Source of the DNA: Candidatus Iainarchaeum sp.
GTDB taxonomy: Archaea; Iainarchaeota; Iainarchaeia; Iainarchaeales; JAZDDZ01
DNA: 64,000 nucleotides
Reading direction: 5' to 3'
Assembly (NCBI GenBank): GCA_043809245.1
Contig: JAZDDZ010000047.1
Coordinates: 43,223 to 107,222 of the forward strand
Below, in pieces: positions 11,253 to 52,358 of this stretch; the first letter of the stretch is position 1, and each line of letters begins with the position of its first letter. The notes beneath the pieces were generated by a model, which saw only the letters and a list, made by a program, of their open reading frames with translations, was not told the DNA's origin and made no database searches. A program made the translations under genes and the position numbers.

Positions 11253-11362
11253 TGGCGGGCGGGGAGGGATTTGAACCCTCGACCTACAGCTTAGGAGGCT
11301 TGCAAGAAATGCAGAAAAAACTGTCACCTCATGTTGCCCTATCCAGGCTAGGCTACCCGCCC
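11253..11362 (-). tRNA. tRNA-Arg(CCT) with a 32-nt intron at 29/30 (11300..11331); CCA encoded
   Basis: GGGCGGG/CCCGCCC acceptor; ACA|GC-CTCCTAA-GCTGT anticodon arm; GAGGG-TTCAAAT-CCCTC. Strict bulge-helix-bulge (GCAA/TTGC helix, CA|T and AA|G bulges). Confidence 0.92.
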
Positions 11363-12288
11363 AGCAATTCAATCATCTTACGTGACCTTATTGCCTTATT
11401 GGGGTGGTAAAAATCTATGTTCTGCAAGAATTTAAAAAGCATCTCCTTATTTCTAATTCTTAGCTCGTAAGTATCAGATATACGGTCAGAAGAGGGGGAT
11501 TTTGCCACCCGCTTGTAAATTTTAAGGGTCTCGATGCCAAAGTTTAGAAGGGTCTCTTTAATTTCTTCTATAAACTTTTTATCCTTGAAAGTGAGATCTA
11601 TGAAAAGCTGCTTGGCTTTTTTTGGATTTTTTGGTAAAGTTCCATCAGAATCAAATAAACCGGCTAAGTAATATTTTAGGACTGATTTATCATTTTTAAT
11701 TAGGCCCGGAATCCTAAGATTTTCTTTTACTCCCCGATTTATCCCGAATATATTATGCAAAAAAGAATTCACAACAATGCTCCTTAGCGGGAGACAAGGG
11801 ATAAATCTTTTAGATAATGTCGATTTAACGCTTATTATTTTCCCCGATAAACCAAAAAGATATTCTGAAATGGAATTAACTTTTTCCAACTGTTCCTTGT
11901 ATTCATCAGAAAAAATAACCCGCTTTCTATCAGAAGTTAAACAACCAGCCCCTTGCAAATACCCGATGAAATACGCTAAATTCGGATCAAGTTGTTTAGG
12001 CAGGTGCACCTTCTTATTTTTTCCCGTAAATTCAACATTATCCAAAGCATAAACTTTAGAAAAAATCGATGAATCAATATTTTTAGCAAATGATTTAAGC
12101 ACTCTGATTGAACAACAAGGTTTTGTTGTCAAATGCCTATGGTAATAGCCTTTTGAAATGTTTAGGAGATCAGCTGCTTGTCTACAAGTTAGACCCGAAT
12201 TCATATGGCTTTCCTTTAGAATTTTAGCAATGCCGAAAATCATCACATTACTGTCAAGTTCTTCATAGTAATCTAGAAGTTTAGCCAT
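11353..12288 (-). CDS. Free-standing HTH + LAGLIDADG homing endonuclease; stop codon inside tRNA-Arg
   Basis: N-terminal HTH; LAYFIGYLQGAG and YLAGLFDSDG; ends GGC GGG TAG, which is tRNA nt 2-10. Confidence 0.85.
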   Translation of the reverse strand: MAKLLDYYEELDSNVMIFGIAKILKESHMNSGLTCRQAADLLNISKGYYHRHLTTKPCCSIRVLKSFAKNIDSSIFSKVYALDNVEFTGKNKKVHLPKQLDPNLAYFIGYLQGAGCLTSDRKRVIFSDEYKEQLEKVNSISEYLFGLSGKIISVKSTLSKRFIPCLPLRSIVVNSFLHNIFGINRGVKENLRIPGLIKNDKSVLKYYLAGLFDSDGTLPKNPKKAKQLFIDLTFKDKKFIEEIKETLLNFGIETLKIYKRVAKSPSSDRISDTYELRIRNKEMLFKFLQNIDFYHPNKAIRSRKMIELLGG

Positions 12289-12361
12289 AAAAAAAGTTAA
12301 ATTTTAGAGTATATATTAGTTTCTGGACCTCATTTCCTCTGCCAGCCAAAGGTGCAACCAT

Positions 12362-12925
12362 CTAAATTAAAATTGTTAACGCTGCAGCGCAGACAAGGGG
12401 AATCATGAGGTTGTCGTCAACAGGCAAGTATTCTGCGAGCATTCCGATTACTGCAACAATTATCGCGGCGCTTAATGGAAATAGCTGCGCCAAGAGCGCG
12501 GCTGAAACGATTATTCCCGCGATTGTCCCCTCAAGCGTGTAAGGCGCAACTGTTTTGATTCTCCCAATTGCCTTTCCTGCAATTGTGGAAATGGTGTCGC
12601 CGTAAACAGAAACCAATAGCGCGCCGAAAACGATTTCCTGCCCTGGAAAAAGAAAGACAAGCAGGAAAAAACCAAGCAAAAAGTACAGCGCGCCGTAGCC
12701 CGGAAAATGCTTTTCCTTTTCCCTGCCGAATTTTTGCACAAAAAAATTTATTGCAGGAATATTCGCGCCCCTTTTCACAAACCACGAGATAATTATTCCT
12801 GTGAGGAAAATCGCGGCAACAGCCAAAAGAAGCAATTGCCTTTCAATGAAAGCCGCGGCCAGAAGAAAAATTGTGCCAAGCACCGCGTGGAACAGCTTGC
12901 GTTTTGTTTCCCTCATTAAAGTCAT
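12362..12925 (-). CDS. Dolichol/phytol kinase-like (CTP-transferase family) membrane protein
   Basis: RKLFH, GDTISTIAGKAIG, TLEG, DDNLMIP. Confidence 0.8.
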   Translation of the reverse strand: MTLMRETKRKLFHAVLGTIFLLAAAFIERQLLLLAVAAIFLTGIIISWFVKRGANIPAINFFVQKFGREKEKHFPGYGALYFLLGFFLLVFLFPGQEIVFGALLVSVYGDTISTIAGKAIGRIKTVAPYTLEGTIAGIIVSAALLAQLFPLSAAIIVAVIGMLAEYLPVDDNLMIPLVCAAALTILI

Positions 12926-13656
12926 CGCGTTCTGCCCCTAATGAAATTAATTGCTTCACTTAAGCTTTTTTTATTGCTGTAAGAGCGCACTATTTTTTTC
13001 AAGGAAGTTGTTTTCTTGCCTTTGAGTTTTTTTGCCTCTTTCTCCAGCAATGGAATGCATCTAACAACATTGTCAACGATTGAAATGTCTGCCTTCTGCG
13101 CTGTCCTGCTGAAAGGGTTTAAGTCAACGGCAACAACTTTTTTCCCGTTTTTGCGGAGCGCTTCCGTTCTATCCCCGTCCTCAAGCATCACAAGCACGCA
13201 GTCAGCGCTCCAGATTCCATTTGAGCTGACGAAAGCGCGCTTTGATTCAAGGAAAGCAAGTTTTTTGCCAGGATTAACGCCAAGGATTTTTGCGCCGAAC
13301 TTGGAGAATTCCTTTGCAATAAGCAACTCTCTTTTTCTGCTGCGGTAGAAAAGATTCACTTCAATTTTTGCGCCAAGCGTTTTGGCGAGCGAAACAATTT
13401 CTTTTGCGCACAACGCGGTTGTGTTTCCGTTAACAGAGATTACGGGTTTTTCCGCGAGCAGCAACTGCGCAGCTGCAGCAGAAATTGCTTTTTTTGCAAA
13501 CTTCTGCGTTTTTTCCCCTAAAAGATAATCAAATGCCTCGCCCCTCCCCTGTGCAATCATTCCCGCGTGCGCGGCAATCCCTTTTTTTGCGGCCTCTTCA
13601 ATGAGGTGCCTTTGCATTAGCGAATTAAAGCGGGGATGCGATTTCGGCGGCTTCAT
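12922..13656 (-). CDS. pps: Phosphopantothenate synthetase (archaeal PPS)
   Basis: SHPR..SL..R, IAQGRGEAFDYLLGE, ISVNGN, LEDGDRTEAL, DLNPFSRTA. Confidence 0.92.
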   Translation of the reverse strand: MKPPKSHPRFNSLMQRHLIEEAAKKGIAAHAGMIAQGRGEAFDYLLGEKTQKFAKKAISAAAAQLLLAEKPVISVNGNTTALCAKEIVSLAKTLGAKIEVNLFYRSRKRELLIAKEFSKFGAKILGVNPGKKLAFLESKRAFVSSNGIWSADCVLVMLEDGDRTEALRKNGKKVVAVDLNPFSRTAQKADISIVDNVVRCIPLLEKEAKKLKGKKTTSLKKIVRSYSNKKSLSEAINFIRGRTR

Positions 13657-14507
13657 TGTTCGTGCGCCCCCTTTTCTGCAATGCGTGAAACAAGCGTGCT
13701 TTTAGTGAATTTTTTCAGCTGCGCTTCAATTTTTTCCGGTTCACTTGTTGGAACAAAAACTGTTTCCCCGAGCATTGCCATTGAAGCCGGGGGAATTTCC
13801 TCCATCACTTTGCGCACGTTTTCCGATGCAAGGCCTGTTTCAACTGAAAAAACGCGTGAAAGGTGGATGAATTCCTTGATTGAAGGCAATAATGATATTT
13901 GTTTCATGCAGTAATCCCCTGAACGGTTGATTTTTTCCATCCAGCTTTTGTCCTTGATTATTTTTTTGGTTTTCATTGCGGAAAAAAAACCGCAAACCAC
14001 GAATTCTTCTTCGCATTTAATTTCCTTCACTTTCTCTGAAGGATATGGCTGCAGGCCATACATCACGCCCTTAAACTGCTGTGCAATCACATCCCCCAAG
14101 CCTGTTCCTGCCTCTATTTCAGCTTGTTTTGCGAGCTCCATGCATTCCTTTAAGGAAAGCCTTGCGCCGAGCGCCTTGTTCAACGCAAGCGTAAGGGAAA
14201 ATGCGCCTGCTCCGCTTGCACCCAAGCCAAAGCCGATTGGCACTTTTGATTCAAAATTGCATTCAAGCGCGAATTTTTTGCCTGAAATTTTGGATAATTT
14301 TTCCGCTGCAATGCGGGAAGTCGAAGCGTTGAATCTTTCGCCGTTTAGGAAGAAATGCATTGAGTTTTTTTCGGCTTCCCTAACCTCCACTTCTGCCTTC
14401 ACGCCTTCGCTTAGATTGATTCCCGCGCCAGTGCTTCCATTGGAATAAATTTTAAAGAAGCAGGTTATGTGTGAGGGCGCATAAGCGCTTGCAGTTGATT
14501 TATGCAT
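13653..14507 (-). CDS. pok: Pantoate kinase (GHMP family)
   Basis: APSHITCFF, GSTGAG, PIGFGLGASGA, GTGLGDV, SMAMLGETVF. Confidence 0.9.
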   Translation of the reverse strand: MHKSTASAYAPSHITCFFKIYSNGSTGAGINLSEGVKAEVEVREAEKNSMHFFLNGERFNASTSRIAAEKLSKISGKKFALECNFESKVPIGFGLGASGAGAFSLTLALNKALGARLSLKECMELAKQAEIEAGTGLGDVIAQQFKGVMYGLQPYPSEKVKEIKCEEEFVVCGFFSAMKTKKIIKDKSWMEKINRSGDYCMKQISLLPSIKEFIHLSRVFSVETGLASENVRKVMEEIPPASMAMLGETVFVPTSEPEKIEAQLKKFTKSTLVSRIAEKGAHEQ

Positions 14508-14584
14508 TAATTTCACAAAAGAATTTTTATGCGAATGATTAATAAGGAAAAACGCTGTTAAGTTTTAGGGAAAAGAGACTTTCT

Positions 14585-14686
14585 ATGCATGGTCAGGAAC
14601 TGATAGAAACAAGTCACCGTTTTCTTAAAGAAATAACTTCGAGCATCAAAGACATCAAATCAGGGAGAGTTAGAAGGATCCGCTGA
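14585..14686 (+). CDS. 33-aa antitoxin-tail-like micro-ORF or remnant
   Basis: Manual translation: MHGQELIETSHRFLKEITSSIKDIKSGRVRRIR. Confidence 0.4.
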   Translation: MHGQELIETSHRFLKEITSSIKDIKSGRVRRIR

Positions 14687-14697
14687 TTTTTCCTTTT

Positions 14698-15369
14698 TCA
14701 CTTCCTTTTGCATAAAACCATTGCATGCTCTGTGTCAAAGGGTTCAAGGGAAACGGGCTGGATTATTTCAAATTCTTTCTCCAGCAGTTTAATCTCTTTT
14801 TCAACGACTTTTTGCGCTTTTTCGGTTTGGCTGATTGAGCGCACCTTAATGACCAAGAGGCCATGGCCTTCGCCTTTGAGGTACATGCGCGCGTTTTTCA
14901 GAAAAATCTGCGCCTGGTTTTTCTGGCTGACATCCTGGTACAATAAATCAACTTTTGTTCCGGAAAGGTCTTTCAAATAGCTTTGCGGCTGCTCTGCATC
15001 GCCTAAAATCGGCGCAATGTTTTTCCTGTGCTCGCACAGCCACAAAAATTTCCTCATGACCCTCTCGCTTATATCAACGCCGAAGATGACTCCTTCCTCT
15101 CCAATGATATCAGATAGGTGTGAAATAGTCGTTCCCTCTGCGCTTCCAAGGTAAAGGATGTGCGCGCCTTTTTTCACAGGCATTTCCTTTAAGCCTTTTT
15201 TTATCGCTGCAGCAAGCTTTGACCTTTCAGGCATCCACTGCCTGAACTCCTCTCCTTTTGATTCAAGCAATTGTTCGCCGTAAACTTTTACGCCTTTGCA
15301 GAGGTTTTTGGTAAATAAAAGCTGCCCAAACCCGTAGATTCCTGGAAACAATTCCTTCATTTCAGCCAT
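14698..15369 (-). CDS. flpA: Fibrillarin-like rRNA/tRNA 2'-O-methyltransferase
   Basis: VYGE, RSKLAAAI, LYLGSAEGTTISHLSDI, YQDVSQ, LEPF. Confidence 0.95.
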   Translation of the reverse strand: MAEMKELFPGIYGFGQLLFTKNLCKGVKVYGEQLLESKGEEFRQWMPERSKLAAAIKKGLKEMPVKKGAHILYLGSAEGTTISHLSDIIGEEGVIFGVDISERVMRKFLWLCEHRKNIAPILGDAEQPQSYLKDLSGTKVDLLYQDVSQKNQAQIFLKNARMYLKGEGHGLLVIKVRSISQTEKAQKVVEKEIKLLEKEFEIIQPVSLEPFDTEHAMVLCKRK

Positions 15370-15391
15370 AAAGAATCAAAAGCAATTTTTT

Positions 15392-16195: not shown

Positions 16196-16270
16196 TTGAG
16201 CACCAAGAGATTTAAGCCATTGAATGATTAAAAAGCTTTGCTGTAACTGCCATTAAAAAACAGCTAACCA

Positions 16271-18196: not shown

Positions 18197-18202
18197 CTGG
18201 CA

Positions 18203-18733: not shown

Positions 18734-18734
18734 G

Positions 18735-20714: not shown

Positions 20715-20786
20715 GCCGCGGTAGCACAACGGCAATGCAGCGCACTCGTAATGCGCAGACTGGGGGTTCGATTCCCCCCCGCGGCT
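20715..20786 (+). tRNA. tRNA-Thr(CGT)
   Basis: GCCGCGG/CCGCGGC-T acceptor; GCGCA-CTCGTAA-TGCGC; GGGGG-TTCGATT-CCCCC. Confidence 0.92.
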
Positions 20787-20860
20787 TTTTCTCTGCTTTT
20801 ACCTTGTGCCCTGCCAGTTCAGAGACAAAGAATAAAAATTGATTGCTCCTTTTTTATAAT

Positions 20861-21856
20861 ATGAATAATAGGGTTAGTTTTAGCTCTAAAAAAGAAGCTT
20901 CAAATTTTTTTGAGTGCGCTAGAAACACGGGAAAGTTCAATTCATGGCGGGAACTCGCTGTTTTTCTAAATGTGCGTATTGGAAAATTGTGGGATTACAG
21001 GAAAGGGACATATTCCCTGCCTTCGGGCAAATTCGAGGCTCTGATAAATCTCGTGCCATCGCGCATGCGAAAAAGGTTCGAAAATGCCGTAACAATAATG
21101 CCCTCCAACTGGGGCCAATCAAAGGGCGGCTGCATTACTTATTCTAGACATAAAAAAATTTTCGATGACGGAAGGGCTAAAGCCAGGGAAAACAGGTTAT
21201 TAAATGCAAAATACGACTTTGACTCAGCCATGCCTTTAAATGAAAAGCTTTGCGAATTTTTAGGCGCATTTATAGGAGATGGTTTCACAAACGCTTACAA
21301 CGGGCATTACATGACCCAGTTTGCAGGACATTCCAAGTTGGATGCGGACTATTACAACAATTTGATTATTCCGTATGCGAAGCAATTATTCGGCTTTGAA
21401 AAGCCATATATAAGAACAAAAGCCAATGCGTTATGGGTTACTTTTTATTCAAAAAGATTATTTGAATTTATGACTAAAAGGTTCGGGTTTCCTGCAGGGA
21501 AAAAATCCGCTTCAGTTTTAATACCTGGAGAGGTATTGGATTCAGACAAGACCAACATTTGTGCGCTGTTGAGGGGGTTATTCAATACTGATGGTGGAGT
21601 TCACTTTGACAAACGAAAAATTTACAAAACACCTTACATGCGAATCGAATTACACATGAAAAATGAACGGATCATCGAACAAGTTTATATTGAGTTAATA
21701 AGATTGGGAATTAATGCCAAAAGAAATAGTTCAAGCACGAGAGTGCAGATAAATTCAGAACAAGCAGTTTCAACATATCTCAATCAAATCGGGTTTTCCA
21801 ATAAAAGACATCTGGACAGAATTAGTTCCAGGGGCGTTTCCAATTCCACCTCATAG
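20861..21856 (+). CDS. Free-standing HTH + LAGLIDADG homing endonuclease; stop overlaps a tRNA 3' half
   Basis: SWRELAVFL HTH, NWGQSKGG, FLGAFIGDG, LRGLFNTDG, IGFSN.RH. Confidence 0.87.
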   Translation: MNNRVSFSSKKEASNFFECARNTGKFNSWRELAVFLNVRIGKLWDYRKGTYSLPSGKFEALINLVPSRMRKRFENAVTIMPSNWGQSKGGCITYSRHKKIFDDGRAKARENRLLNAKYDFDSAMPLNEKLCEFLGAFIGDGFTNAYNGHYMTQFAGHSKLDADYYNNLIIPYAKQLFGFEKPYIRTKANALWVTFYSKRLFEFMTKRFGFPAGKKSASVLIPGEVLDSDKTNICALLRGLFNTDGGVHFDKRKIYKTPYMRIELHMKNERIIEQVYIELIRLGINAKRNSSSTRVQINSEQAVSTYLNQIGFSNKRHLDRISSRGVSNSTS

Positions 21857-21890
21857 CAGGGGGTCGGGGGTTCAAATCCCTCTCGGGGCT
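21855..21890 (+). pseudogene. Isolated tRNA 3' half (Thr-like, U73)
   Basis: A-GCAGG-GGGTC-GGGGG-TTCAAAT-CCCTC-TCGGGGC-T followed by a T-run; no intact adjacent 5' half. Confidence 0.75.
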
Positions 21891-21917
21891 TTTTCATTCA
21901 GATTAAAGGGATTTCTA

Positions 21918-39980: not shown

Positions 39981-39998
39981 TGGGCACGGGCGGATTTG
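39981..39998 (-). pseudogene. Displaced tRNA 3' end (T-loop to discriminator)
   Basis: Minus strand CAAAT-CCGCC-CGTGCCC-A; 13/18 identical to the tRNA-Ile 3' end at 41135..41152. Confidence 0.7.
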
Positions 39999-40065: not shown

Positions 40066-41214
40066 ATGGAAGATAAAAGGCTGAAATTTCAGCCCGGCAA
40101 GCAGAGGGCTTTGTTGGAGTTATTTTTTTACAAGCACGGTTTCACCCAAAGAGAATTAGCCGGAAGATTAGGGGTATCAAAAGGCACAATAGCAGCATAT
40201 TTCACGGAGAAAAACAACCTATTGCTTTCAACTTTCCAAAAGCTTGAATCAATTGATCCCGCTGTAAAAGGATATGAAAAATTCATAGAAAAAGAATTGC
40301 CTCTCGGTTGGGGCGCAAAAAAGGGCGGTATCGAAAGGGCAAAACTTATTCCAAACAAGAAAACCTATTATGAAGGTATAAGGCATATAAAAAAATTGAA
40401 AGAATTAGCTAACGCTAGGAAAGAAAAAGAAAAAATAGAGAATCACCCTTTAGTTGAGGAGCTAAAGAAGGCTAATGTTGATTTGGAAGCCGTACTGGCA
40501 GTTTGCCTTTTAACGGATGGCTCACTCTGCATTAAAGGAAAAAATCTTAGGATTAGTTACACAACTAAAGACCATATTCTAGAAAAGCTGCTTTTTTCAA
40601 TGATGAACGAACTGTCAGCCAGGGTTCCAGGAATTGGTTTTTCACAAAGTGCTAATACCGTAAGGGTGAGTGATGACGCGCTAGCGAAAAAATTACTCAA
40701 CCTCAGCCCGAATTTCAAAACAAGCCCAAGCAGACATGAGACCAACGAGGATTATCTTAAAGAACCGCAGCCAACCATACGCTTTCTTTCAAAATCCAAT
40801 CAACAGACAAAAAAATGGGCTTTGAGGTTTGCATTCACTGCGGACGGCTACATCAGCAAGGCGGCAAATGGAAAAACAGAATTGGGGCTCTCCTGTTATC
40901 ACACGAATCTTGCAATTGAATGGAAACAGATTATAGAAGAATTTGGCTTATCCTGCACGCTTGCCCAAAACAAAAATTCTTGGTGCGGCATATCTGGAAT
41001 CAGAATTCAAAACATGGATTCTATTGGAAAATTTTTTCAGCTTGGCGGGTTCATAGATGGAGTTAAAATATCCAATAAAAGCAAAAAATTCAGGGGGCTG
41101 GCAAAAAACGAGCTGTTGACACAGATTGTGGAAATGGGAAAGGGAGGACTCGAACCTCCGACCCCCCGGTTATCAGCCGGATGCGCTAGCCACTGCGCCA
41201 CATTCCCAAAATAA
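40066..41214 (+). CDS. Free-standing HTH + LAGLIDADG endonuclease reading antisense through tRNA-Ile
   Basis: FTQRELAGRLGVSKGTI HTH, WGAKKGG, VCLLTDG, RFAFTADG. C-terminus MGKGGLEPPTPRLSAGCASH is the tRNA antisense. Confidence 0.8.
   Translation: MEDKRLKFQPGKQRALLELFFYKHGFTQRELAGRLGVSKGTIAAYFTEKNNLLLSTFQKLESIDPAVKGYEKFIEKELPLGWGAKKGGIERAKLIPNKKTYYEGIRHIKKLKELANARKEKEKIENHPLVEELKKANVDLEAVLAVCLLTDGSLCIKGKNLRISYTTKDHILEKLLFSMMNELSARVPGIGFSQSANTVRVSDDALAKKLLNLSPNFKTSPSRHETNEDYLKEPQPTIRFLSKSNQQTKKWALRFAFTADGYISKAANGKTELGLSCYHTNLAIEWKQIIEEFGLSCTLAQNKNSWCGISGIRIQNMDSIGKFFQLGGFIDGVKISNKSKKFRGLAKNELLTQIVEMGKGGLEPPTPRLSAGCASHCATFPK
41135..41207 (-). tRNA. tRNA-Ile(GAT)
   Basis: GGGAATG/CTTTCCC-A acceptor (one T-T mismatch); CCGG-CTGATAA-CCGG; GGAGG-TTCGAGT-CCTCC. 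Confidence 0.92.
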
Positions 41215-41319: not shown

Positions 41320-41352
41320 TTGCCGCAGCGGCAATCTACTCCCCCGAAAACT
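41320..41352 (+). repeat. Conserved palindromic motif upstream of endonuclease genes
   Basis: TTGCCGC-A-GCGGCAA. 41323..41352 is 26/30 identical to 51186..51215. Related copies at 39999, 44616 and 12333(-). Confidence 0.75.
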
Positions 41353-41380
41353 GCTTAAAAGACAAAACAAGAATCATTAC

Positions 41381-42325
41381 ATGAAGTTCTCCATTTTTGA
41401 TGTAGATAACCAATGGCTTGCAGAAAAAATCTGCATTGATGGAATAAACCAAGAAGCTAAAGACATTATAAAAAGTTTGGGCGGACCATCAAAAACCTGC
41501 AAACTTTTAAACTGCAAATATACGCGATTAAAAGAATGGTCTAACGGCAGGTCGCCCATACCTTTACATGTTTTGCTAAAAACGCTTAATGCATGCGCCG
41601 ACAGTTTTAAGGAAAAAATCAAAAACAAGATTGACTCAAAAGAAATTAACCTCAAGGCACAATACTCGCCGCACAAAGTAAAATTTCCAAAGAAAATGAC
41701 TCCTAACTTGGCTTACATAACAGGAGTAATTTTAGGGGACGGACATCTAGCCAGCAGCAAAGATAATGAAAAGGGAAACTGGGCAATATCTGTTTGCTTT
41801 GACAATTTAATGCATCTCAAGGTCTACAATCAATATATTAAGGAAATATTCGGCATCGAGCCTAAATATTATTTTTGCCAAAAGAAGAATTATTATGTTT
41901 CCTATTTTGCATCATTGACTGTCCACTGGTTTTTAAGGAATTTCCTCGAAATTCCAAATGGTAATAAAAGCAGCCTAATCCAAATGCCCGAAGTAATTGC
42001 CAATGGAGATGAAAAAATAATTTCAGCCTTCATTAGCGGGCTATTTGATTCCGATGGCACAATAACCAAAAACGGGGAACTTAAATTTGCAAGCACAAGC
42101 GAAAGAATTGTACACCAGGTTAAGGCTGCGCTAGCTTGTTTCTCAATTAAAAGCTATCATTCAAAATGGCTTAAATCGGAAAAATACAAAATGCTTCACA
42201 CAATCAGAATAGGCAAGGAATCAATTCAATCATTCGAGAAAACAATCGGATTTAAGCATCCAAGGAAAAAGCAGCTATTAAAAATGTTTTCAAATAAGAC
42301 TTTAGTTAATAGCCCCGTCGTCTAG
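41381..42325 (+). CDS. Free-standing HTH + LAGLIDADG endonuclease; stop codon inside tRNA-Gln
   Basis: LAYITGVILGDG, FISGLFDSDG, IGFKHPRK; ends AGC CCC GTC GTC TAG, which is tRNA nt 1-15. Confidence 0.88.
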   Translation: MKFSIFDVDNQWLAEKICIDGINQEAKDIIKSLGGPSKTCKLLNCKYTRLKEWSNGRSPIPLHVLLKTLNACADSFKEKIKNKIDSKEINLKAQYSPHKVKFPKKMTPNLAYITGVILGDGHLASSKDNEKGNWAISVCFDNLMHLKVYNQYIKEIFGIEPKYYFCQKKNYYVSYFASLTVHWFLRNFLEIPNGNKSSLIQMPEVIANGDEKIISAFISGLFDSDGTITKNGELKFASTSERIVHQVKAALACFSIKSYHSKWLKSEKYKMLHTIRIGKESIQSFEKTIGFKHPRKKQLLKMFSNKTLVNSPVV

Positions 42326-42429
42326 CGGCCAAAGCAATAAACGTATTTTCGTTAAAATTATGGTTGTTGCTGCCGAAAGGATGGCAGGCTCTGGACCTGC
42401 GGACAGGAGTTCGAATCTCCTCGGGGCTA
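42311..42429 (+). tRNA. tRNA-Gln(CTG) with a 46-nt D-loop intron (42332..42377)
   Basis: AGCCCCG/CGGGGCT-A; GCAGG-CTCTGGA-CCTGC. BHB: CGGC/GCCG helix, CA|A and AA|A bulges, AGCAATAA/TTGTTGCT intron stem. Confidence 0.9.
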
Positions 42430-42844: not shown

Positions 42845-43279
42845 ATGCAGCCAATTGCATTAATCGCTGACACAAACGCCTTGCTTTCAGCGCTGCTAAA
42901 AGACAATTTGTCAAGAAAAATTTTTTTAAACCCGAAAGTGAAGCTTTCCTCGCCACAGCACATGAACGAAGAAGTCAACAGGCACGCAGAAGAATTAGCC
43001 AAAAGAATCGGCATAACGCAAAAAGAGTTCGTTCACGCATTCGAATTGCTTTTAGAAAAATCAGGGCTTGAAATTATTGCGGAAAAACAATACGAATCCC
43101 TTAAGCCAATGGCATTGGAATTATGCCCTGAGGGGCACAAGGACGACTGGCCTTTCCTCGCCTTGGCTTTAAAGCAAAACTGCGCTTTATGGTCAAACGA
43201 TAAAGCGCTCAAAAAACAATCAACAATTGAAGTACATTCAACATTTGAATTAAAGCAAAAACTCGGAAAACTGTTATAG
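42845..43279 (+). CDS. PIN-domain toxin
   Basis: IADTNALLSALL, DDWPFLALAL, LWSNDKALK. Confidence 0.9.
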   Translation: MQPIALIADTNALLSALLKDNLSRKIFLNPKVKLSSPQHMNEEVNRHAEELAKRIGITQKEFVHAFELLLEKSGLEIIAEKQYESLKPMALELCPEGHKDDWPFLALALKQNCALWSNDKALKKQSTIEVHSTFELKQKLGKLL

Positions 43280-43338: not shown

Positions 43339-43342
43339 GCGT

Positions 43343-44357: not shown

Positions 44358-44615
44358 ATGGGTTTGCTGGATTTTTTGGGCAAAAAAAAAGATGAAAGCA
44401 GTGAAGCAGAAAACGCAAAGGAAGCCAAAGCGGCAAAGGAATCAAAAGAGGCAAAAAAGGAAGCCGCAAAAGAAGACGCTGCCTCTGACGCAAAGTATGA
44501 GGGCAAGGAATGCTCGATGTGCGGCGGCATGGGCGCTGAAAAAAAATGGATGGGGCAATACTGGCACAAAAAATGCCTTAGGTCGATGAAGAAAGGCGCG
44601 CGAAAAATGATTTGA
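44358..44615 (+). CDS. Small Zn-finger protein
   Basis: CSMCG..YWHKKC; low-complexity K/E/A N-terminus. Confidence 0.65.
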   Translation: MGLLDFLGKKKDESSEAENAKEAKAAKESKEAKKEAAKEDAASDAKYEGKECSMCGGMGAEKKWMGQYWHKKCLRSMKKGARKMI

Positions 44616-44692
44616 TTCCGCAGCGGAAACGCACCCTGAAAAGCTATTTAAACAGCCCGAAGCCAACTTTTTCTGGAAGCAGTGGTGGCAGG

Positions 44693-45115
44693 GTGCAGAG
44701 GATTTATTTGGATTCAAATATTTTTATCGCTTATATCAGGAGCGATATGGGCAAGCCGTTCAAGCTGATGTTCAAGGATGTTGAGGATTTCTTTGACTGC
44801 TGCCCGAATAGGTTCGTTCTTGTTTTGTCCGAATTTTTTATTGAAGAAGTCGAAAAAAAAGTGCACTATTCAAAAAGCATGGTTGGAGAATTCTTTAAAG
44901 ATTACAAAATTTCAACTGAATTTATTGAAACAACCAAAATTGAAAAGAAATTGGCTCCCGAGTTTTTCAAAAAAGGGCTGCACGCTGGCGATGCATTGCA
45001 TGCTGCTTTTGCAATAAATTCAAAATGTGATTTTCTTTTGACTTTCAACATTAAAGATTTTAAGCGACTGGAAAACAGGATTAAGTTAAGAGAGCCAAAA
45101 GAACTAGTCGAGTGA
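44693..45115 (+). CDS. PIN/VapC toxin, convergent with the RHH gene
   Basis: IYLDSNIFI, DALHAAFA, LLTFNIKDF; start trimmed to GTG 44693. Confidence 0.88.
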   Translation: MQRIYLDSNIFIAYIRSDMGKPFKLMFKDVEDFFDCCPNRFVLVLSEFFIEEVEKKVHYSKSMVGEFFKDYKISTEFIETTKIEKKLAPEFFKKGLHAGDALHAAFAINSKCDFLLTFNIKDFKRLENRIKLREPKELVE

Positions 45116-45379: not shown

Positions 45380-45433
45380 AAAAATCACGCTAATATTAGA
45401 GTTAATATTAGTGTTTTTATATGTTTCGGCGGA

Positions 45434-45790
45434 CTATTTTTTCTTTGCCCTTCCGTATTTGTCCTCGAACCTTTTGATGTCGTTCTCTTCGAATTTTCCG
45501 AAGGAAATCTCCAAAACCATTGCCTCTTTGGAGGAATTGTTTTGAATTCTGTGCCTTGCCCCCTTTGGAATGAAAATGCTCTGCAGTTTTTTCAGCAGGG
45601 TTTTTTTGCTTCCAACCGTTACTGTAATCCCTTCGGTTAACGCAGCCCATTGCTCTGAGCGCTTTTTATGCGATTGAAGGGAGAGGATTTGCTTTGGCTT
45701 GACTGTTAAAATTTTTACGGTTGTTTTTTCATTCAAAGTGAAGCGCCTGAAATTCCCCCAGGGCCTTTTTTCAAAAAAAGTTTTACCCAA
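45434..45790 (-). CDS. Type II mannose-6-phosphate isomerase-like cupin
   Basis: RPWG, LSLQSHKKRSEQW, IPKGARHRI, ENDIKRFEDKYGR. Confidence 0.9.
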   Translation of the reverse strand: MGKTFFEKRPWGNFRRFTLNEKTTVKILTVKPKQILSLQSHKKRSEQWAALTEGITVTVGSKKTLLKKLQSIFIPKGARHRIQNNSSKEAMVLEISFGKFEENDIKRFEDKYGRAKKK

Positions 45791-45794
45791 GCTA

Positions 45795-47696: not shown

Positions 47697-47752
47697 CAGC
47701 ACACCAAAAGAAAGGTGAACAAAAAGGGTTTTAAATGGCTATTTGCAGCCTA

Positions 47753-48727
47753 TTAAAAGTATTTTATTTTGTGCACTTTGTGGAACAGGAAGTAATCGTA
47801 GTCCTTCACTTTTCCGGGGAATTTTGCGCTGAATTTTTTGACAAAGCGCTCCATTTCCTCGGGCCTTTCAGCCAGGATTTCAATTTCCAAGTCTGCGAAG
47901 CTGATTGACTTGTCGATGTAGATTGTTGAAGGCTCCGCGAGGGCAAAGGAAACCATTTCAGCGTATTTGTCCAGGTCATTTAACTGAAAATTTATCTTGT
48001 ACATTGCGAGCCCCATTTTCTCCAGGTTCAGCCTTGCCCTGAATCCTTTAATAATTCCGTTTTTTTTCAGGTTTTTCATCAGGAGCTTTATGCTTGAAAC
48101 GGAAATGCCTGTTTTCTTTGCGAGTTCAACAGTAGGCAGCCTTGCGTTTTCGCTTAAGGCGGAGAGGAGCTTTTTTTCCGAATCAGAAATCGAAATCGAG
48201 CCAAATGTTTCCCCCACAACCTGCACCGGCCTATCAAGGATTTTTTCAGGCACAAGGAATGCCGCGGCACAGTCATGCACTTTCGTGTAAGGGCAAACCA
48301 CGCTTTTAAGCATAAATTTTTTGTATTTAGAGGTTATTTTTTCCCAGAATTGCTCAAACTCATATATGTTCTTCATGTAGGAGACAAAGCCGAAATTGAA
48401 TTCCCCTGAAATGCTGCCAACCCACCAAGTGAATGGGCTTGAAGTAATTGCTTCAACGAATCCTTTTTCCTCCTCTACCGTATCAAACCTTACCCTCAGG
48501 TAAATCCCGATTCCCTGGAAGCCAAGCAAAGGCTTGTCAATCACTGTATAAAAAGAAACAATGAATTCTTCCCTTAGAAGCCTGTTAATGCGGTAATTTA
48601 CCACATTTTTATCCATTGCCATTTTTTTTGCAATCTGCGAGTTTGACTGCCTTGAATTGCAGTCAAGCTCGAAAAGAATAAGCCTGTCCTTTTCATCCAA
48701 ACCACCAAACTTTGCCTGTTTAGCCAT
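47753..48727 (-). CDS. Tandem Lrp/AsnC-family regulator
   Basis: LDEKDRLILFELDCNSRQS..VNYRINRL and LSENARLPTVELAKK. Confidence 0.85.
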   Translation of the reverse strand: MAKQAKFGGLDEKDRLILFELDCNSRQSNSQIAKKMAMDKNVVNYRINRLLREEFIVSFYTVIDKPLLGFQGIGIYLRVRFDTVEEEKGFVEAITSSPFTWWVGSISGEFNFGFVSYMKNIYEFEQFWEKITSKYKKFMLKSVVCPYTKVHDCAAAFLVPEKILDRPVQVVGETFGSISISDSEKKLLSALSENARLPTVELAKKTGISVSSIKLLMKNLKKNGIIKGFRARLNLEKMGLAMYKINFQLNDLDKYAEMVSFALAEPSTIYIDKSISFADLEIEILAERPEEMERFVKKFSAKFPGKVKDYDYFLFHKVHKIKYF

Positions 48728-48912
48728 ATTTAATCATATAGCTCAAAATAGCATAAAAATATATCTGTTTGAACAAAAAATAGTACTTAATTTTTATTAA
48801 GTTGAAATGATGCTATTTATTTGTGGTGTTATAAAAAAGAAAAAAAACAAGGCCAGTCTTCCGAAGCATTTGTTTAACTGCTTCAGCAAGTTTTGAGGAA
48901 AGGCATAAAACT

Positions 48913-49782
48913 ATGCAGCAGAAAAAGTTAGCCTCAGCCATTAGGCGCGAGGCAAAAAAAGGGAAAGCAGTTGTGCTTTGCTCCGGCGGAGTTGACAGCA
49001 CTGTTTGCGCAGTGCTTGCAAAAAATGCCTTGGGCAGCAAAGCGGTTTTTTATTTCATTGATTCAGGTTTCCAGCGGAAATTTGAAGCCCAAAAAGCTGA
49101 AAAAAATCTGGAAAAACTTGGAATCACGCTAAAAATTTTTAATGCAGGGCATTGCTTTTCACAGCTGAAAAAAAGCAGGGCAAATTCAGTTGAAAGAAGG
49201 GCGCTTTCCCTGGCTGGTTTTTCCCGCGCGGTTGAATTGATTTCAAAAAAAGAGAAATGCCGGGCATTTATTTTTGGGACAACCCAAGATGATTTGGCTG
49301 CGTCGGGAAAACAGTCAGGCGCGAATAAAAGCGGGTTCACGATTATTGAGCCGCTTAAATGCCTGGAAAAAAAACAGGTGCGCGGGCTTGCGGAACAACT
49401 GGGCATTCCAAAAAAAATTATTCACGCACAGCACTTTCCTGGGCCTGGGCTTTCATTGAGGGTTTTAGGCAGGCTGGATGGCAGAAACATCGCGTTGGCA
49501 CAGGAACTTCACGCGTTTTTTGAAAAGAAAAAGAATTGGCTTGTCGGGAAAAAGGGGGATTCAATCTTTTTTCCTTTTGTTATCCCTGCAAATGAAAATG
49601 GGAAAAAGTGGGTTGGGATTAGGGCACTAAAACAAGTTAACGCAGAAACTGCAATACTGCCGGAATTAAGGTTAGAAAAACTATGGCTGCTTGCAGCAGG
49701 GATATTGGATGAATTTCCCTCGGTTGGAAGAGTGCTTCTGGATATATCCCCAAAACCACCGGCAAAAATGGAGATGCTTTGA
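48913..49782 (+). CDS. Divergent GMP synthase ATP-pyrophosphatase subunit-like protein
   Basis: SGGVDS, IEPL..K..VR, FPGPGL, RVLLDISPKPPA. Confidence 0.75.
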   Translation: MQQKKLASAIRREAKKGKAVVLCSGGVDSTVCAVLAKNALGSKAVFYFIDSGFQRKFEAQKAEKNLEKLGITLKIFNAGHCFSQLKKSRANSVERRALSLAGFSRAVELISKKEKCRAFIFGTTQDDLAASGKQSGANKSGFTIIEPLKCLEKKQVRGLAEQLGIPKKIIHAQHFPGPGLSLRVLGRLDGRNIALAQELHAFFEKKKNWLVGKKGDSIFFPFVIPANENGKKWVGIRALKQVNAETAILPELRLEKLWLLAAGILDEFPSVGRVLLDISPKPPAKMEML

Positions 49783-50556
49783 ATGAAAAAAGAAAACAAC
49801 ATCGCTCTAATCTGGGACGTATTACTTCACTTCATGTATCCACAGGAATACGCGGAATCGCTGGCAGAATTCCTGAAGAAAAAAAAGGCGCACTCGATTC
49901 TTGACGCCTCATGCGGCACTGGCTTTCCGTCAATAGAGCTTGCAAAGAAGGGCTTTAATGTAATAGGCGCTGATGCGGATGAAAAAATGCTTGAAAGGGC
50001 AAAGCAGAAAAGCGTGGAACAATGCGCGAAACTTGAATTCATGAAGGTTGACTGGACAAAACTATCAAAAACATTCACGCAAAAATTCGACTGCGTCATG
50101 TGCAGGGGAAACTCGCTTCCTTATGCGGCATCGTGGGGAAAAGAGTCACTTGACATCCCAATTGCAAGGAAAAAAATTGAAAAGGCCGTTGAAAACTTTT
50201 ATGCGGTTCTGAAAAAAGGCGGCATATGCTATATTGATGCGGCGCCAAAAGTTGATTTCCTCCCGAACCACAAAAAAGAAGTCATTTTTGACCCGCTTGT
50301 GATTGACGGCAAAAGCGTCAGGATGATCCAGCGAATTTACCACGACAACAAGAAGCACATCAGGCACTGGAAACCAATTGTTGAAATTACCGCCAATGGC
50401 AAAACCAAAACCATGTGGAAAAAATACAAAGGCTATCACTTGGGGCACGATATCCTTGTCTCGCTGATGAAAAAAGCCGGTTTTTGCAAAGTGGACGAAT
50501 ACGTTGAAATAAAAGGCGAAAAGAATTATGACGTGTTCGTCGGCTACAAGAAATAA
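49783..50556 (+). CDS. Class I SAM methyltransferase (glycine/sarcosine N-MTase-like)
   Basis: ILDASCGTG, FDCVMCRGNSLPY, LKKGGICYID. Confidence 0.8.
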   Translation: MKKENNIALIWDVLLHFMYPQEYAESLAEFLKKKKAHSILDASCGTGFPSIELAKKGFNVIGADADEKMLERAKQKSVEQCAKLEFMKVDWTKLSKTFTQKFDCVMCRGNSLPYAASWGKESLDIPIARKKIEKAVENFYAVLKKGGICYIDAAPKVDFLPNHKKEVIFDPLVIDGKSVRMIQRIYHDNKKHIRHWKPIVEITANGKTKTMWKKYKGYHLGHDILVSLMKKAGFCKVDEYVEIKGEKNYDVFVGYKK

Positions 50557-51150
50557 TTAAGCGCTTTTTTTCGCAATCCAGATTCTCTGGAGTGCCGTGA
50601 AGTTTGAGAGCACTGCAAGGAAGGCAATAACGTAAACAAGGAATGAAAGGTCAATTGACGCGGCAATGATTCCAGCAAACAATAAAATCATTCTCTCAGC
50701 CCTCTCCAAAAGACCGCCTTTCAGTTCCTTTTCCACTAATTCTTTTTCTTTTGCCGCAGCCTTAACGTAAGTTGTCATCATTGCGCCGAAAAAGTAAAGG
50801 AAAAGCCATGCAACAGCCGGAATGAAGAAAAACGGAAGGGAAACGAATAAAAGAGCGAAAACAATTATTGCCTCAATGTACCTGTCCACAATTGTGTCCA
50901 GAAAAGCGCCGAACTTGCTCACTGTGCCTGTAACGCGAGCAACAGAGCCGTCAACAAAGTCAAGGAACGCGGCAACAATCAATGAAACCGCGGCAAAAAC
51001 AAACTGCTGCTGGAAAATGAACCAAAAAGCCGCAATAGCGGGAAGGATTGAGATAAGAGTCCAGGCGTTAGCGCTGAAGGGGATTTTGCTGAATGCAATG
51101 CCTATTTTTACCGACAACTTTTCAAACCTTTCACGGTTCCTGTAAAGCAA
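50557..51150 (-). CDS. CDP-alcohol phosphatidyltransferase (archaetidylinositol-phosphate synthase-like)
   Basis: DFVDGSVAR..GAFLDTIVDRY, YVKA, ERAER; downstream of ino1. Confidence 0.88.
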   Translation of the reverse strand: MLYRNRERFEKLSVKIGIAFSKIPFSANAWTLISILPAIAAFWFIFQQQFVFAAVSLIVAAFLDFVDGSVARVTGTVSKFGAFLDTIVDRYIEAIIVFALLFVSLPFFFIPAVAWLFLYFFGAMMTTYVKAAAKEKELVEKELKGGLLERAERMILLFAGIIAASIDLSFLVYVIAFLAVLSNFTALQRIWIAKKSA

Positions 51151-51182
51151 GCATTCACCTTTTATGAGATAATTTTGCAGTA

Positions 51183-51215
51183 ATTCCGCAGCGGAAATGT
51201 ACTCCCCCCAAAGCT
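51183..51215 (+). repeat. Conserved palindromic motif upstream of endonuclease gene
   Basis: ATTCCGC-A-GCGGAAA, 15 bp identical to 44615..44629. Confidence 0.75.
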
Positions 51216-51278
51216 AAATAAATGCTATTTTTCCAAATTAATAGGAAACAAAGTAGTTAAAATGCTTGGTGATTAAGA

Positions 51279-52358
51279 TTGGAAAATCCTATTTTGACTT
51301 ATAACGAATTCATAATACATTTCCCATCAATTAAGCCGAAAAGCAAGAGGTTAGCCAACAAACTGTTGCCACTGTATCCTTCCACTGAACTTGCCCAGAT
51401 AACTGGCGCCTTGTTGACCGACGGGCATGTCGACTGGTATGTTTCTGACGGCAGTCCGAGAACAAGGAAAATTATTTTATACTCAAGCAATGAAGAGGAA
51501 TGTGAGTGGTTTTCTGGTTTGGTCAAAAAAGTTTTTGCCGTTGAACCAAAAATTACAGCCTATTTGCCAAAATACGGGCAATTCAAGTTGCAGCCCTACA
51601 AAGCGGTCTTAAATAATTCAGTCGTTGCCCAAACAATGATTCTTTTAGGGGTTTGCGCGGGAGACAAAACAAAATGCGGGTATAAGGTTCCAGAATGGAT
51701 TCTGAATGGAAACAAGAAGATTAAAGCTGCATTCCTGAAAACTGTTTTTACTTTCGACGGTTCAAAACCATACAAGAGAAAAAATACGTGGACTATCAGC
51801 TATAGCACAACCGTGACAAAAGAAGCCCTGCCTAACGGCTTTTTGCTTTTCAAACAGCTTAACCAACTTTTAAAAGAATTCGGCGTAACTTTCAGTTCAA
51901 TTCCAACAGCACACTTGAAAGAGAATGGGAAATTCATGCTAATATCATCCGCATCATCTAGAGAGTCAATTACTAATTTTTTACGGAATTTGGGCTATCT
52001 TAACGAAAACAAGCAAAGAAGGCTGGCTTACGCGGTTGCTGAAATTTTTAAGCTCGCAAGAATACGCTCTCCAAAAAATAACCACTTGTTAAGCAAATTC
52101 AAAAAAATTTTTGGAACAGACAAAGAAACAGCTTTTTTTGTTAATAAGCTCCTTAAAACAAAGTATACAAAAAGGCAATTTGAGCATTTCCGGAGAAACG
52201 AAACAATGGCGCCTTTGGAAATACTTGCCTTAGCGCTGAAAAAAACCAAAACAAAAAATTATTTGCCTGACTGGGCAAAATTTTTGCACAGCCATTATCT
52301 TTCTCTAGTTCCGTTGATGAATTCTTCAACCATTTCTTTGGCTGCAGATGGAGAGTAG
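51279..52358 (+). CDS. Free-standing LAGLIDADG endonuclease overlapping the ino1 3' end in antisense
   Basis: LAQITGALLTDG, FLKTVFTFDG, LGYLNENKQ; HTH-like C-terminus; 64-bp tail-to-tail overlap. Confidence 0.82.
   Translation: MENPILTYNEFIIHFPSIKPKSKRLANKLLPLYPSTELAQITGALLTDGHVDWYVSDGSPRTRKIILYSSNEEECEWFSGLVKKVFAVEPKITAYLPKYGQFKLQPYKAVLNNSVVAQTMILLGVCAGDKTKCGYKVPEWILNGNKKIKAAFLKTVFTFDGSKPYKRKNTWTISYSTTVTKEALPNGFLLFKQLNQLLKEFGVTFSSIPTAHLKENGKFMLISSASSRESITNFLRNLGYLNENKQRRLAYAVAEIFKLARIRSPKNNHLLSKFKKIFGTDKETAFFVNKLLKTKYTKRQFEHFRRNETMAPLEILALALKKTKTKNYLPDWAKFLHSHYLSLVPLMNSSTISLAADGE

Follow-up and report, generated by a model that had tools for sequence, protein, structure and literature searches.

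A 64,000-nucleotide (nt) stretch of the archaeon Candidatus Iainarchaeum sp. (assembly GCA_043809245.1, contig JAZDDZ010000047.1, positions 43,223 to 107,222; hereafter the window) carries five open reading frames (ORFs) for LAGLIDADG endonucleases, which end within or directly against transfer RNA (tRNA) genes or the end of a protein gene. The survival of homing endonuclease genes is usually ascribed to introns or inteins, which make their insertion harmless, and free-standing ones are known mainly from phages and organelles. What, then, are these five genes, and how could they persist at the edges of tRNA genes? We consider it likely, in line with a preliminary description made from the letters of the window alone, that they belong to an intron-less and intein-less family of LAGLIDADG homing elements, which sit at tRNA gene ends and carry a replacement for the gene end. 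This reading is built on the association with tRNA genes, the fidelity of enzyme clades to single tRNAs, presence and absence at the same site, duplicated tRNA pieces, pseudogenes, retained catalytic residues and the fold. The five ORFs are called O1 to O5 in coordinate order. L-numbers denote loci, G-numbers genomes, and C-numbers with G000 the contigs of the window's own genome (1.48 Mb in 55 contigs, 91.8% complete).

The five ORFs and the genes that they abut

The preliminary description had reported five free-standing ORFs with two LAGLIDADG motifs each and without intein blocks. This holds. The Pfam family LAGLIDADG_3 (cut-off 22.5 bits) matched O1 to O5 at 61.4, 31.5, 27.5, 62.0 and 27.2 bits, and no intein or Hint family appeared in them in a scan listed down to E ≤ 0.1. 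The ORFs encode 311 to 382 amino acids (aa) and stand alone; none lies within the Hint blocks of a host protein, as an intein endonuclease would.

O1 (11353–12288, minus strand, 311 aa) runs into tRNA-Arg(CCU) (11256–11362, minus strand), a gene of 107 nt that scores 46.5 bits in Rfam and whose identity was read from the sequence. The stop codon TAG of O1 (11353–11355) is formed by nt 8–10 of the tRNA. By sequence reading, this tRNA bears a non-canonical insert of about 32 nt after nt 28 (about 11303–11334); tRNA-Arg(CCU) of the relatives has an intron at the canonical site or none. O2 (20861–21856, plus strand) follows an intact tRNA-Thr(CGU) (20715–20786, plus strand; found by ARAGORN and, with 64.5 bits, by Rfam). 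It begins 57–74 nt past that gene, with an ATG at 20861 and the first in-frame start codon, TTG, at 20843. Its stop codon TAG occupies 21854–21856, and at the next base an orphan tRNA-Thr-like 3' fragment begins (21857–21891, plus strand), which consists of a variable loop, a T arm, the 3' strand of an acceptor stem and U73 and is followed by a T run.

O3 (40066–41214, plus strand), which in translation joins a helix-turn-helix (HTH) domain to the LAGLIDADG part, converges with tRNA-Ile(GAU) (41134–41208, minus strand; ARAGORN and Rfam). Its stop codon TAA (41212–41214) lies 4 nt past the tRNA, and its last 26 or so codons are antisense tRNA-Ile. On the far side of O3, in the orientation of tRNA-Ile, there is a weak candidate for a decayed tRNA 3'-end remnant (39981–39998, minus strand) with part of a T loop, the 3' strand of a T stem and the 3' strand of an acceptor stem; no tRNA matching it was found in the available sequences. 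O4 (41381–42325, plus strand) runs into tRNA-Gln(CUG) (42311–42429, plus strand), so that its stop codon TAG (42323–42325) corresponds to nt 13–15 of the tRNA and its last codons contain the TATA-like box of that gene. The tRNA-Gln was called by neither ARAGORN nor Rfam. Its assignment comes from sequence reading, from a fold with acceptor, anticodon (CUG) and T arms, and from the presence of the same tRNA behind the O4 orthologs. It has an insert of about 46 nt in the D loop, after nt 22 (about 42333–42378), and an insert at the same position is found in L031. The O4 orthologs (33–46% identity) precede tRNA-Gln(CUG) in four other genomes, one of them cut by a contig end.

O5 (51279–52358, plus strand) is placed between the gene of myo-inositol-1-phosphate synthase, ino1 (52295–53401, minus strand; Inos-1-P_synth, 124 bits), and a CDP-alcohol phosphatidyltransferase gene (50557–51150, minus strand; CDP-OH_P_transf, 63.9 bits, and synteny), in the opposite direction to both. 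The latter gene is the usual immediate downstream neighbour of ino1, and O5 parts the two here. O5 overlaps the convergent 3' end of ino1 by 64 nt, its last 21 codons being antisense ino1. Since the C-terminus of ino1 is conserved to the last residue in 13 relatives, the tail of O5 is mere antisense ino1. All four intact tRNA genes of the window are thus adjoined by a free-standing LAGLIDADG ORF, and both this adjacency and the five stop positions are as the preliminary description had given them.

Association with tRNA genes

Three arrangements were distinguished. In 5s, the ORF lies upstream of the tRNA on the same strand and runs into its 5' part; in 3a, the two converge and the ORF enters the tRNA 3' end in antisense; in 3s, it lies downstream on the same strand. 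A profile of 45 family members found 26 ORFs in the window's own genome, of which 16 were long intein-type frames and 10 were free-standing (frames of at most 520 aa). Six of these 10 touch a tRNA gene: O1 to O4, an ORF ending 53 nt ahead of an intron-bearing tRNA-Val (C10:39018-39941), and a partial ORF running antisense into tRNA-Thr(GGU) (C3:55458-55892). About 48 tRNA loci of about 200 nt each make up 0.65% of 1.48 Mb, which gives an expectation of about 0.07 among 10 ORF ends. Proximity no better than chance, which had been named beforehand as a result that would speak against the family, was therefore not what the genome holds.

The preliminary description had suggested that non-intein ORFs be collected across DPANN archaea, and the association recurs in two such collections. 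The first comprised 40 genomes of the same order, none of which belongs to the family of the window's genome. O4 had 42 matches there with open frames of at most 460 aa; L033 was dropped because it is cut by a contig end, and the remaining 41 loci were scanned by Rfam and by intron-allowing ARAGORN. A tRNA was present at 32 of the 41 (19 in 5s, 9 in 3a and 4 in 3s arrangement), and the ORF overlaps the called tRNA at 15 of the 19 5s loci. Uncalled T-arm-like elements were seen at two further places: inside the 3' end of the ORF, on the antisense strand, in L072 of the group without tRNA, and 126 nt after the stop codon in L071 of the 3s group. The last base of the stop codon falls at tRNA positions 10, 10, 11, 15, 15, 15, 16, 28, 38, 48, 50, 52, 88, 90 and 92 in these relatives, and the tRNAs are entered in all three frames. 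The stop codons lie inside tRNAs because ORFs without a stop of their own read on into the neighbour until one comes into frame. A stop within the neighbour is therefore a by-product.

The second, replication set was obtained with a profile of the tRNA-Thr clade against one genome per species of the GTDB collection. It gave 80 loci, from which five stretches already in the earlier set and one running off its contig were removed. The remaining 74 are all short frames, and nearly all lie on contigs with DPANN titles (Iainarchaeum, Woese-, Pace-, Nano-, Micr- and Aenigmatarchaeota), a few being titled Methanosarcinales or bacterium. ARAGORN placed a tRNA within 150 nt at 57 of the 74 (27 in 5s, 18 in 3a, 11 in 3s, and one upstream on the opposite strand), and the partner is tRNA-Thr in 42 of these 57 typed loci. 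Rfam, applied to the 17 ARAGORN-negative loci, added six at its gathering score (L143, L153, L193, L201, L202 and L217), and L197 at 28.1 bits, so that the total is 63 of 74, or 64 with L197. For a rough control, ARAGORN without introns was applied to 24 distant LAGLIDADG relatives from viral contigs; one of them adjoined a tRNA. Only relatives of at most 30% identity were found on viral contigs, in a search for a viral vector. The closest of them (L221:348-1146, 30%) has a tRNA-Ser on the same strand, 46 nt past the end of the protein match, which is the same layout as at the archaeal loci.

The association extends to single clades. In a tree of 50 family members, the well-supported clades have one tRNA and one arrangement each. 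One is a tRNA-Gln(CUG) 5s clade with O4, L031, L032 and L034, from four different families, whose flanking genes are not shared among the O4 orthologs. Others are the tRNA-Leu(UAG) 5s and tRNA-Arg(GCG) 5s clades and a tRNA-Thr clade, which is divided into a CGU 3s subgroup (O2, L077, L080) and a GGU/UGU 3a subgroup. On this tree, 18 changes in the amino acid of the partner tRNA were counted, where shuffled labels gave 26.1 on average (none of 1000 shuffles had 18 or fewer); for the arrangement there were 10, where shuffling gave 13.4 (reached in 14 of 1000). These figures overstate independence because related sequences share labels. By record titles, single clades keep single tRNAs across at least six named DPANN groups.

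The same site with and without the ORF

If the ORFs were syntenic and vertically inherited in all relatives, as the preliminary description had named for its own refutation, the same flanks would be expected to enclose an ORF everywhere. Instead, relatives with the same flanks lack it. Empty alleles were found for O1, O2 and O5 and for two loci of the relatives, the latter with junctions that could be mapped. In L087 (G039), a tRNA-Thr(UGU) is followed by a convergent ORF. G013, of the same genus, shares both flanks at 70–74% identity, and the interval of 1118 bp in G039 shrinks to 135 bp in G013, with the junction at the tRNA-Thr 3' end. The two genomes exchange roles at the second locus, L086, in which G013 has an ORF between carA and carB (1268 bp), where the carA–carB gap of G039 is 23 bp. 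In the occupied allele, the ATG of the ORF overlaps the carA stop codon, and the ribosome-binding sequence of carB recurs at the ORF end. Two contigs of G039, C28 and C56 (L101–L103), both bear the carA flank; one continues into carB and the other into an ORF start, after which the contig ends. This suggests that both alleles coexist in the sampled population of G039.

For the O2 site, a metagenome scan with the neighbouring aminoacyl-tRNA synthetase gene gave 23 loci (60–72% identity), none of which has a family member. Ten of the 23 keep tRNA-Thr(CGU) downstream of the synthetase gene, and the ORF is present in none of the ten. At the O1 site, the distance from the upstream gene to tRNA-Arg(CCU) is 91 nt in L107 and 24 nt in L109, both ORF-free, and four other loci hold 190–1155 nt of other sequence without a family member. 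At the O5 site, 7 of 13 relatives have ino1 immediately next to the CDP-alcohol phosphatidyltransferase gene, and one of the 13 (L128) has an O5 ortholog, 58% identical, at the same place and in the same orientation. G001, of the same family as G032, the host of an O4 ortholog, keeps the flanking genes and tRNA-Gln(CUG) and lacks the endonuclease gene; in front of the tRNA it has two ORFs which by eye only are DDE-transposase-like. Behind the same tRNA, G001 (C3:115880-117030; L097, L098) has a 48-nt tandem repeat, which is a second tRNA 3' end plus 20 nt of flank. A DNA search for further empty sites gave no match for L053 in G038 or for L036 in G035, and only tRNA-like bits for L082 in G013.

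Duplicated tRNA pieces beside the cassettes

At the O2 locus, the tRNA 3' end is present twice, once in the intact tRNA-Thr(CGU) and once as the orphan behind the stop codon, and the two differ in the acceptor stem. The orphan has its closest counterparts in tRNA-Thr 3' halves of relatives, among them those of the cassette-free tRNA-Thr(CGU) genes of L125 and L108, a likeness to be read beside the occurrence of both acceptor types among cassette-free relatives. A 5' half that would pair with the acceptor strand of the orphan was sought genome-wide, and none with a D arm after it was found in this genome of 91.8% completeness. The arrangement of tRNA-Thr(CGU), ORF and a tRNA 3' fragment right after the stop codon, with a T run, was seen by eye in 12 of 15 loci of the 3s clade. 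When the fragment was compared with the 22 nt at the 3' end of the neighbouring tRNA, at least 15 positions agreed in 9 of 14 such loci and, on the control strand, in none of 14. A gene-end duplication of the kind known from fungal mitochondria is thus present for O2 and for 12 of the 15 members of its clade, and possible for O3.

The orphan of O2 is identical to that of L141 (1846-1880) at 34 of 35 nt, the endonucleases being 83% identical, whereas the intact tRNA-Thr genes of the two loci differ in acceptor stem, T arm and intron. The orphan may have been preserved as a homology arm, as a terminator of the ORF, or by gene conversion. In L142, L147, L148 and L151, the T loop of the intact tRNA-Thr(CGU) has TGC or TCC where the orphan keeps the canonical TTC; the situation is reversed in L145, and TGC stands in both tRNA and orphan in L143, L150, L153 and L154. 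Judged from the sequences, these differences could be resistance changes.

Duplicated pieces, which span 11–35 nt overall, were also found in other arrangements. L081 has a perfect 27-nt copy of tRNA-Val positions 40–66 after the stop codon, and the acceptor strand that continues it is another one. Of 18 3a loci, 4 repeat the tRNA 3' end past the ORF start (15–20 of 22 nt), against 1 of 18 in the control. In L201, nt 1–22 of the tRNA are copied without a mismatch (22/22) about 790 nt upstream, behind a TATA-like box and ahead of the ORF, which ends with a TAG at nt 13–15 inside the proximal tRNA copy. Similar upstream 5' copies are present in L193 (19/22) and L191 (15/22).

Repeats of tRNA 3' ends occur in the window's own genome apart from the ORFs as well. 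An insert of about 150 nt follows tRNA-Arg(UCG) and tRNA-Ser(UGA) (G000:C16:36540-36830 and C31:3565-3850), the two inserts being about 80% alike. Each is flanked by a repeat of about 25 nt of the 3' end of its own tRNA, with the crossover in the T loop, and G000:C32:995-1290 is a variant of the C31 locus without the insert. The insert resembles a small non-autonomous element, or else a cassette in decay, with tRNA 3' ends as its sites.

The proteins

Two LAGLIDADG motifs per chain could be aligned in O1 to O5 and in 40 relatives. The catalytic acid is present in both motifs of O2, O3, O4 (both Asp) and O5 and is kept in most of the 45 aligned members; L078 and L079 lack it in both. In-frame stop codons show that three copies of the relatives (L034, L050 and L079) are pseudogenised. 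The mutual identity of O1 to O5 is only 22–28%. An AlphaFold model of O2 (mean predicted local distance difference test score, pLDDT, 85.8) has a helical N-terminal domain (residues 10–117) and a two-lobed core, which is predicted to adopt the pseudo-dimeric alpha-beta-beta-alpha-beta-beta-alpha LAGLIDADG fold. In Foldseek, the model matched I-DmoI (target template-modelling score 0.68–0.73) and I-Tsp061I (0.69) at E of about 1e-8, and its core further matched PI-PfuI, the VMA intein endonuclease and the bI3 maturase. The solved structure nearest to O4 by sequence is the PI-PfuI endonuclease (E 5e-6), which fits a family related to the intein endonucleases that are abundant in the same genome. 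The database relatives of O4 (42–49% identity) are, where named, 'LAGLIDADG family homing endonuclease' or 'intein/homing endonuclease'.

An added HTH had been claimed for most of the five ORFs. This stands for O3 (HTH_3, 29.8 bits), the only one above the Pfam cut-off, and the O2 model has the helical N-terminal domain given above; the matches of O1 (HTH_31, 17 bits) and O2 (NUMOD1, 17.8 bits) are below the cut-off, and Pfam found no HTH family in O4 and O5. A regulator of the WhiA type was considered and rejected: the ORFs retain the catalytic acids, and any HTH seen lies at the N-terminus, not at the C-terminus. LAGLIDADG_WhiA remained at 17–19 bits in the window ORFs, below its cut-off of 23.2.

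Intein-type LAGLIDADG domains themselves are plentiful in G000, in frames of 706–1708 aa. One is in the window (61021–61230, minus strand, in a 963-aa frame), and about 15 others lie elsewhere.

Proposed mechanism and its weak points

We propose that each ORF would be a monomeric two-motif LAGLIDADG gene in a cassette of about 1 kb that abuts a conserved gene, mostly one for a tRNA, at its end; the enzyme clades are tied to different tRNAs and to one side of each. The cassette would bring its own copy of the tRNA piece that it displaces, so that the tRNA stays whole, and the displaced native piece would be left as an orphan on the far side, where it decays. The enzyme would cut cassette-free copies of the same tRNA gene. 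Repair from the occupied copy would then transfer the replacement piece together with the ORF, the homology being provided by the tRNA halves, by the flanking genes, or by both. Conserved tRNA halves as homology would allow spread between genomes with differing flanks. The occupied allele would be protected because its site is split or altered.

Several findings weigh against this account. That the enzymes cut, what sequence they target, whether sites have gained or lost the cassette, and that homing takes place are what we infer. Presence and absence at a site fit gain and loss alike, and the clade–tRNA pairs kept across families would also result from prolonged vertical co-inheritance combined with losses. 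Because related genomes are not independent, the counts overstate significance, and there was no tRNA at 9 of the 41 loci of the relatives and at about 10 of the 74 replication loci. O1 has Ala in place of the catalytic Asp in motif 1, its motif 2 being intact. A 5' copy of the tRNA was found at 3, perhaps 4, of 29 5s loci, against 1 of 29 on the control strand. On the far side of O1, O4 and O5, a BLAST search with the partner tRNA or the ino1 end found only chance-level 8–9-mers; the best direct repeat between the upstream side of O4 and the tRNA-Gln insert (14/18 nt) was no better than many others, and for O1 there was nothing. Therefore, the carriage of a replacement end is well supported only for the tRNA-Thr(CGU) 3s clade. 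The resistant gene-end copy of the preliminary description thus stands as a duplicated tRNA piece at many cassettes and does not extend to O1, O4 and O5. At most 5s loci, including those of O1 and O4, the cassette may lie upstream of the tRNA and read through its promoter. A TATA-like box (8/8 A/T) is placed inside the last codons of the ORF at 12 of 21 5s tRNAs, compared with 16 of 28 control tRNAs.

Since most 5s tRNAs keep such a box, they need not depend on the promoter of the ORF, and co-transcription as a necessity for these tRNAs was rejected.

Alternative explanations

It is unlikely, in our judgement, that the ORFs are immobile tRNA-linked factors that were domesticated, as regulators through the HTH or as maturase-like helpers of introns, and have been kept vertically. 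The persistence of clade–tRNA pairs across families would suit such a role, as would the N-terminal HTH of O3, the loss of one catalytic Asp in O1 and the fold comparison of O2, in which the bI3 LAGLIDADG maturase is the top match and WhiA is also listed. The introns of the partner tRNAs point in the same direction: they are present in 15 of 21 5s partners of the first set, while of 150 listed tRNA matches in five relatives 14 are 90 nt or longer; the share in these five is put at no more than about 24%. However, the replication set shows a smaller excess (7 of 27 by ARAGORN, about 12 of 32 after the Rfam rescue). The distribution is patchy, with empty sites within the same synteny, pseudogenes exist, and the catalytic acids are kept in most members. 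Moreover, the family also occurs at the protein-gene junctions of ino1 and carA–carB, with no tRNA involved. An intron as the means of immunity was likewise set aside, since the second set did not clearly reproduce the excess of the first.

Integrase-type integration classically leaves direct repeats of tRNA 3' ends. The ORFs might accordingly be cargo or leftovers of integrase-type elements, or of other insertions at tRNA attachment (att) sites, with the duplications as att repeats, and we regard this as very unlikely. The insert of about 150 nt with 25-nt tRNA-end repeats at two tRNAs, with one allele lacking it, speaks for it, and so do the transposase-like ORFs before the tRNA-Gln of G001 and the 48-nt tandem 3'-end copy behind it. 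On the other hand, occupied and empty alleles differ by little beyond the ORF, about 1.1–1.3 kb. No integrase family was found by Pfam in eight scanned neighbours in the window, which are an aminoacyl-tRNA synthetase, DUF7718, a rubrerythrin, a PIN protein, ino1, a transferase and two proteins without a family. Insertions are also found at tRNA 5' sides and at protein-gene junctions, and the target is tracked by endonuclease clades, not by element types.

That some ORFs are still intron-encoded, the distal piece being a true exon and the ORF with the nearby copy a giant bulge-helix-bulge intron, is most improbable: the perfect copy of nt 1–22 behind a TATA-like box in L201, where a short tRNA insert begins exactly after nt 22 as it does in the tRNA-Gln of the window, would agree with it, but there is no upstream exon copy for O1 or O4 in the window, a complete tRNA stands beside every ORF, and the O2 orphan, by reading, pairs poorly with the 5' acceptor strand of the upstream tRNA-Thr (1 mismatch; 2 in L141). 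The inserts of about 32 and 46 nt in the window tRNAs hold no ORF, O1 to O5 lie outside complete tRNAs, and none of them is therefore intron-encoded; L201 is ambiguous in this respect.

Homing at tRNA gene ends, as proposed above, could have a further consequence, to which we assign a small chance. Cassettes may generate broken tRNA genes in DPANN archaea: an insertion inside a tRNA gene would leave an orphan half to one side and, at the junction, additional sequence to be removed by the cell as a non-canonical bulge-helix-bulge intron. The inserts in tRNA-Arg and tRNA-Gln begin near the expected end of an element-borne 5' piece. If this were true, the inserts after nt 22 (tRNA-Gln, L201) and nt 28 (tRNA-Arg) would be examples of junction sequence, and decay of the element-borne copy would leave a tRNA split by a 1-kb insert or as two separately transcribed halves. 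The split, multi-intron and odd-intron tRNAs of Nanoarchaeota and their kin would then be scars of LAGLIDADG homing, and free-standing endonuclease genes a link from intron-encoded enzymes to split genes. The connection of the cassettes with odd introns and split tRNA genes in DPANN archaea is speculative; with it, the origin of split tRNA genes would become open to a direct comparative test.

Relation to known systems

The enzymes are ordinary members of the LAGLIDADG family, and a free-standing lifestyle with gene-end duplication is known from fungal mitochondria. The passages of PMC3630166 on the elements called mORFs describe endonuclease ORFs with a foreign gene C-terminus, for example at atp6 of Allomyces macrogynus and at atp6, atp9, cox2 and nad3 of Glomus sp. 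According to these passages, an mORF that enters at a gene end supplies a foreign version of that end, the native one persisting as a remnant, and the mobility of such mitochondrial elements is stated to be biochemically shown (PMC3630166). As described there, mORFs share with the DPANN cassettes a free-standing ORF (LAGLIDADG, in mORFs also GIY-YIG) at the end of a conserved gene, a replacement gene end that is carried along, and a native end that lies as an untranslated remnant beyond the ORF; an mORF may also be in phase with the host gene or lack a stop of its own, as the DPANN ORFs do. In contrast to mORFs, the hosts of the DPANN cassettes are chromosomal tRNA genes and a few protein-gene junctions, 5' and 3' ends are used in both orientations, and the duplicate is 11–35 nt of an RNA gene. 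Moreover, whereas the mobility of mORFs is given in that source as biochemically shown, the DPANN cassettes are known here from sequence comparison.

Phage T4 SegB cleaves in a tRNA gene region and drives its preferential inheritance, as stated in the part of PMC2330249 that concerns it. Like the DPANN ORFs, it is described there as a free-standing homing endonuclease gene among tRNA genes, with intron-less homing beside its target. Unlike them, it is a GIY-YIG enzyme of a phage genome, and in the system as presented there is no overlap of ORF and tRNA, no duplicated tRNA fragment and no set of clades each tied to one tRNA. I-DmoI, I-Tsp061I and PI-PfuI resemble O2 in the monomeric two-motif fold, in archaeal hosts and in conserved RNA or protein gene targets. 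However, they lie inside an rRNA (ribosomal RNA) intron or an intein that is removed from the product, while the window ORFs lie outside the mature tRNA and are not enclosed by any splicing element. In an archaeal group I intron survey, all 39 introns were in rRNA genes, according to the portion of PMC6125680 that reports it.

The DPANN loci have one more counterpart. In collaborative homing, a free-standing endonuclease acts with a neighbouring ORF-less intron. O1 and O4 bear a likeness to it, since the tRNAs next to them have short non-canonical inserts by which a recognition site could be interrupted. As a rule it is unsupported: inserts occur in 7 of 27, or about 12 of 32, 5s partners of the replication set, and the tRNA-Gln beside one O4 ortholog has no intron.

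A search of the openly searchable literature gave no account of archaeal free-standing LAGLIDADG genes linked to tRNAs, and none of a large, diverse family of them on archaeal chromosomes, with each clade bound to one tRNA gene end and with duplicated tRNA fragments. By sitting at the gene edge and duplicating the displaced piece, DPANN cassettes would gain at tRNA genes a harmlessness like that given by introns and inteins. They would offer a concrete source for orphan tRNA halves, for sequence variation of tRNAs in acceptor stems and T loops, and possibly for non-canonical introns. They would also account for mis-annotations, such as ORFs overlapping tRNAs and tRNAs missed by the usual programs. 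In addition, the family would provide dozens of natural LAGLIDADG enzymes, each with the neighbouring gene as a guide to its probable target.

Further observations

The tRNA sets of such genomes are under-called. Elements with a T arm and an acceptor strand that were left uncalled lie at G000:C10:48040-48170, C27:34041-34065 and C49:1829-1853. The first has a 5' part about 90 nt upstream and is therefore probably a tRNA with a non-canonical intron. In public sequencing data, there was one DNA run with a 0.05 share of words, and no RNA run was listed.

Just downstream of O4 and tRNA-Gln, there are two PIN-domain genes, at 42845–43279 (PIN_2, 82.8 bits) and 44612–45115 (PIN-like, by reading), and the region of 39.9–45 kb of the window looks like an island of accessory genes. 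An upstream motif, CCGCAGCGG, followed after about 20 nt by a TATA-like box, precedes O4 (41323–41360) and O5 (51186–51225). It recurs at position 44618 of the window and on contigs C2, C17, C23, C42 and C48 of G000. It is no general promoter element of tRNA genes. Besides O4 and O5, the motif precedes two further LAGLIDADG ORFs (C2:4254-5114 and a 462-aa one from C48:30392), two PIN-domain genes, two Bro-N-like genes (by reading) and a DNA methyltransferase-like gene, and it may be a shared operator or promoter of accessory or mobile genes.

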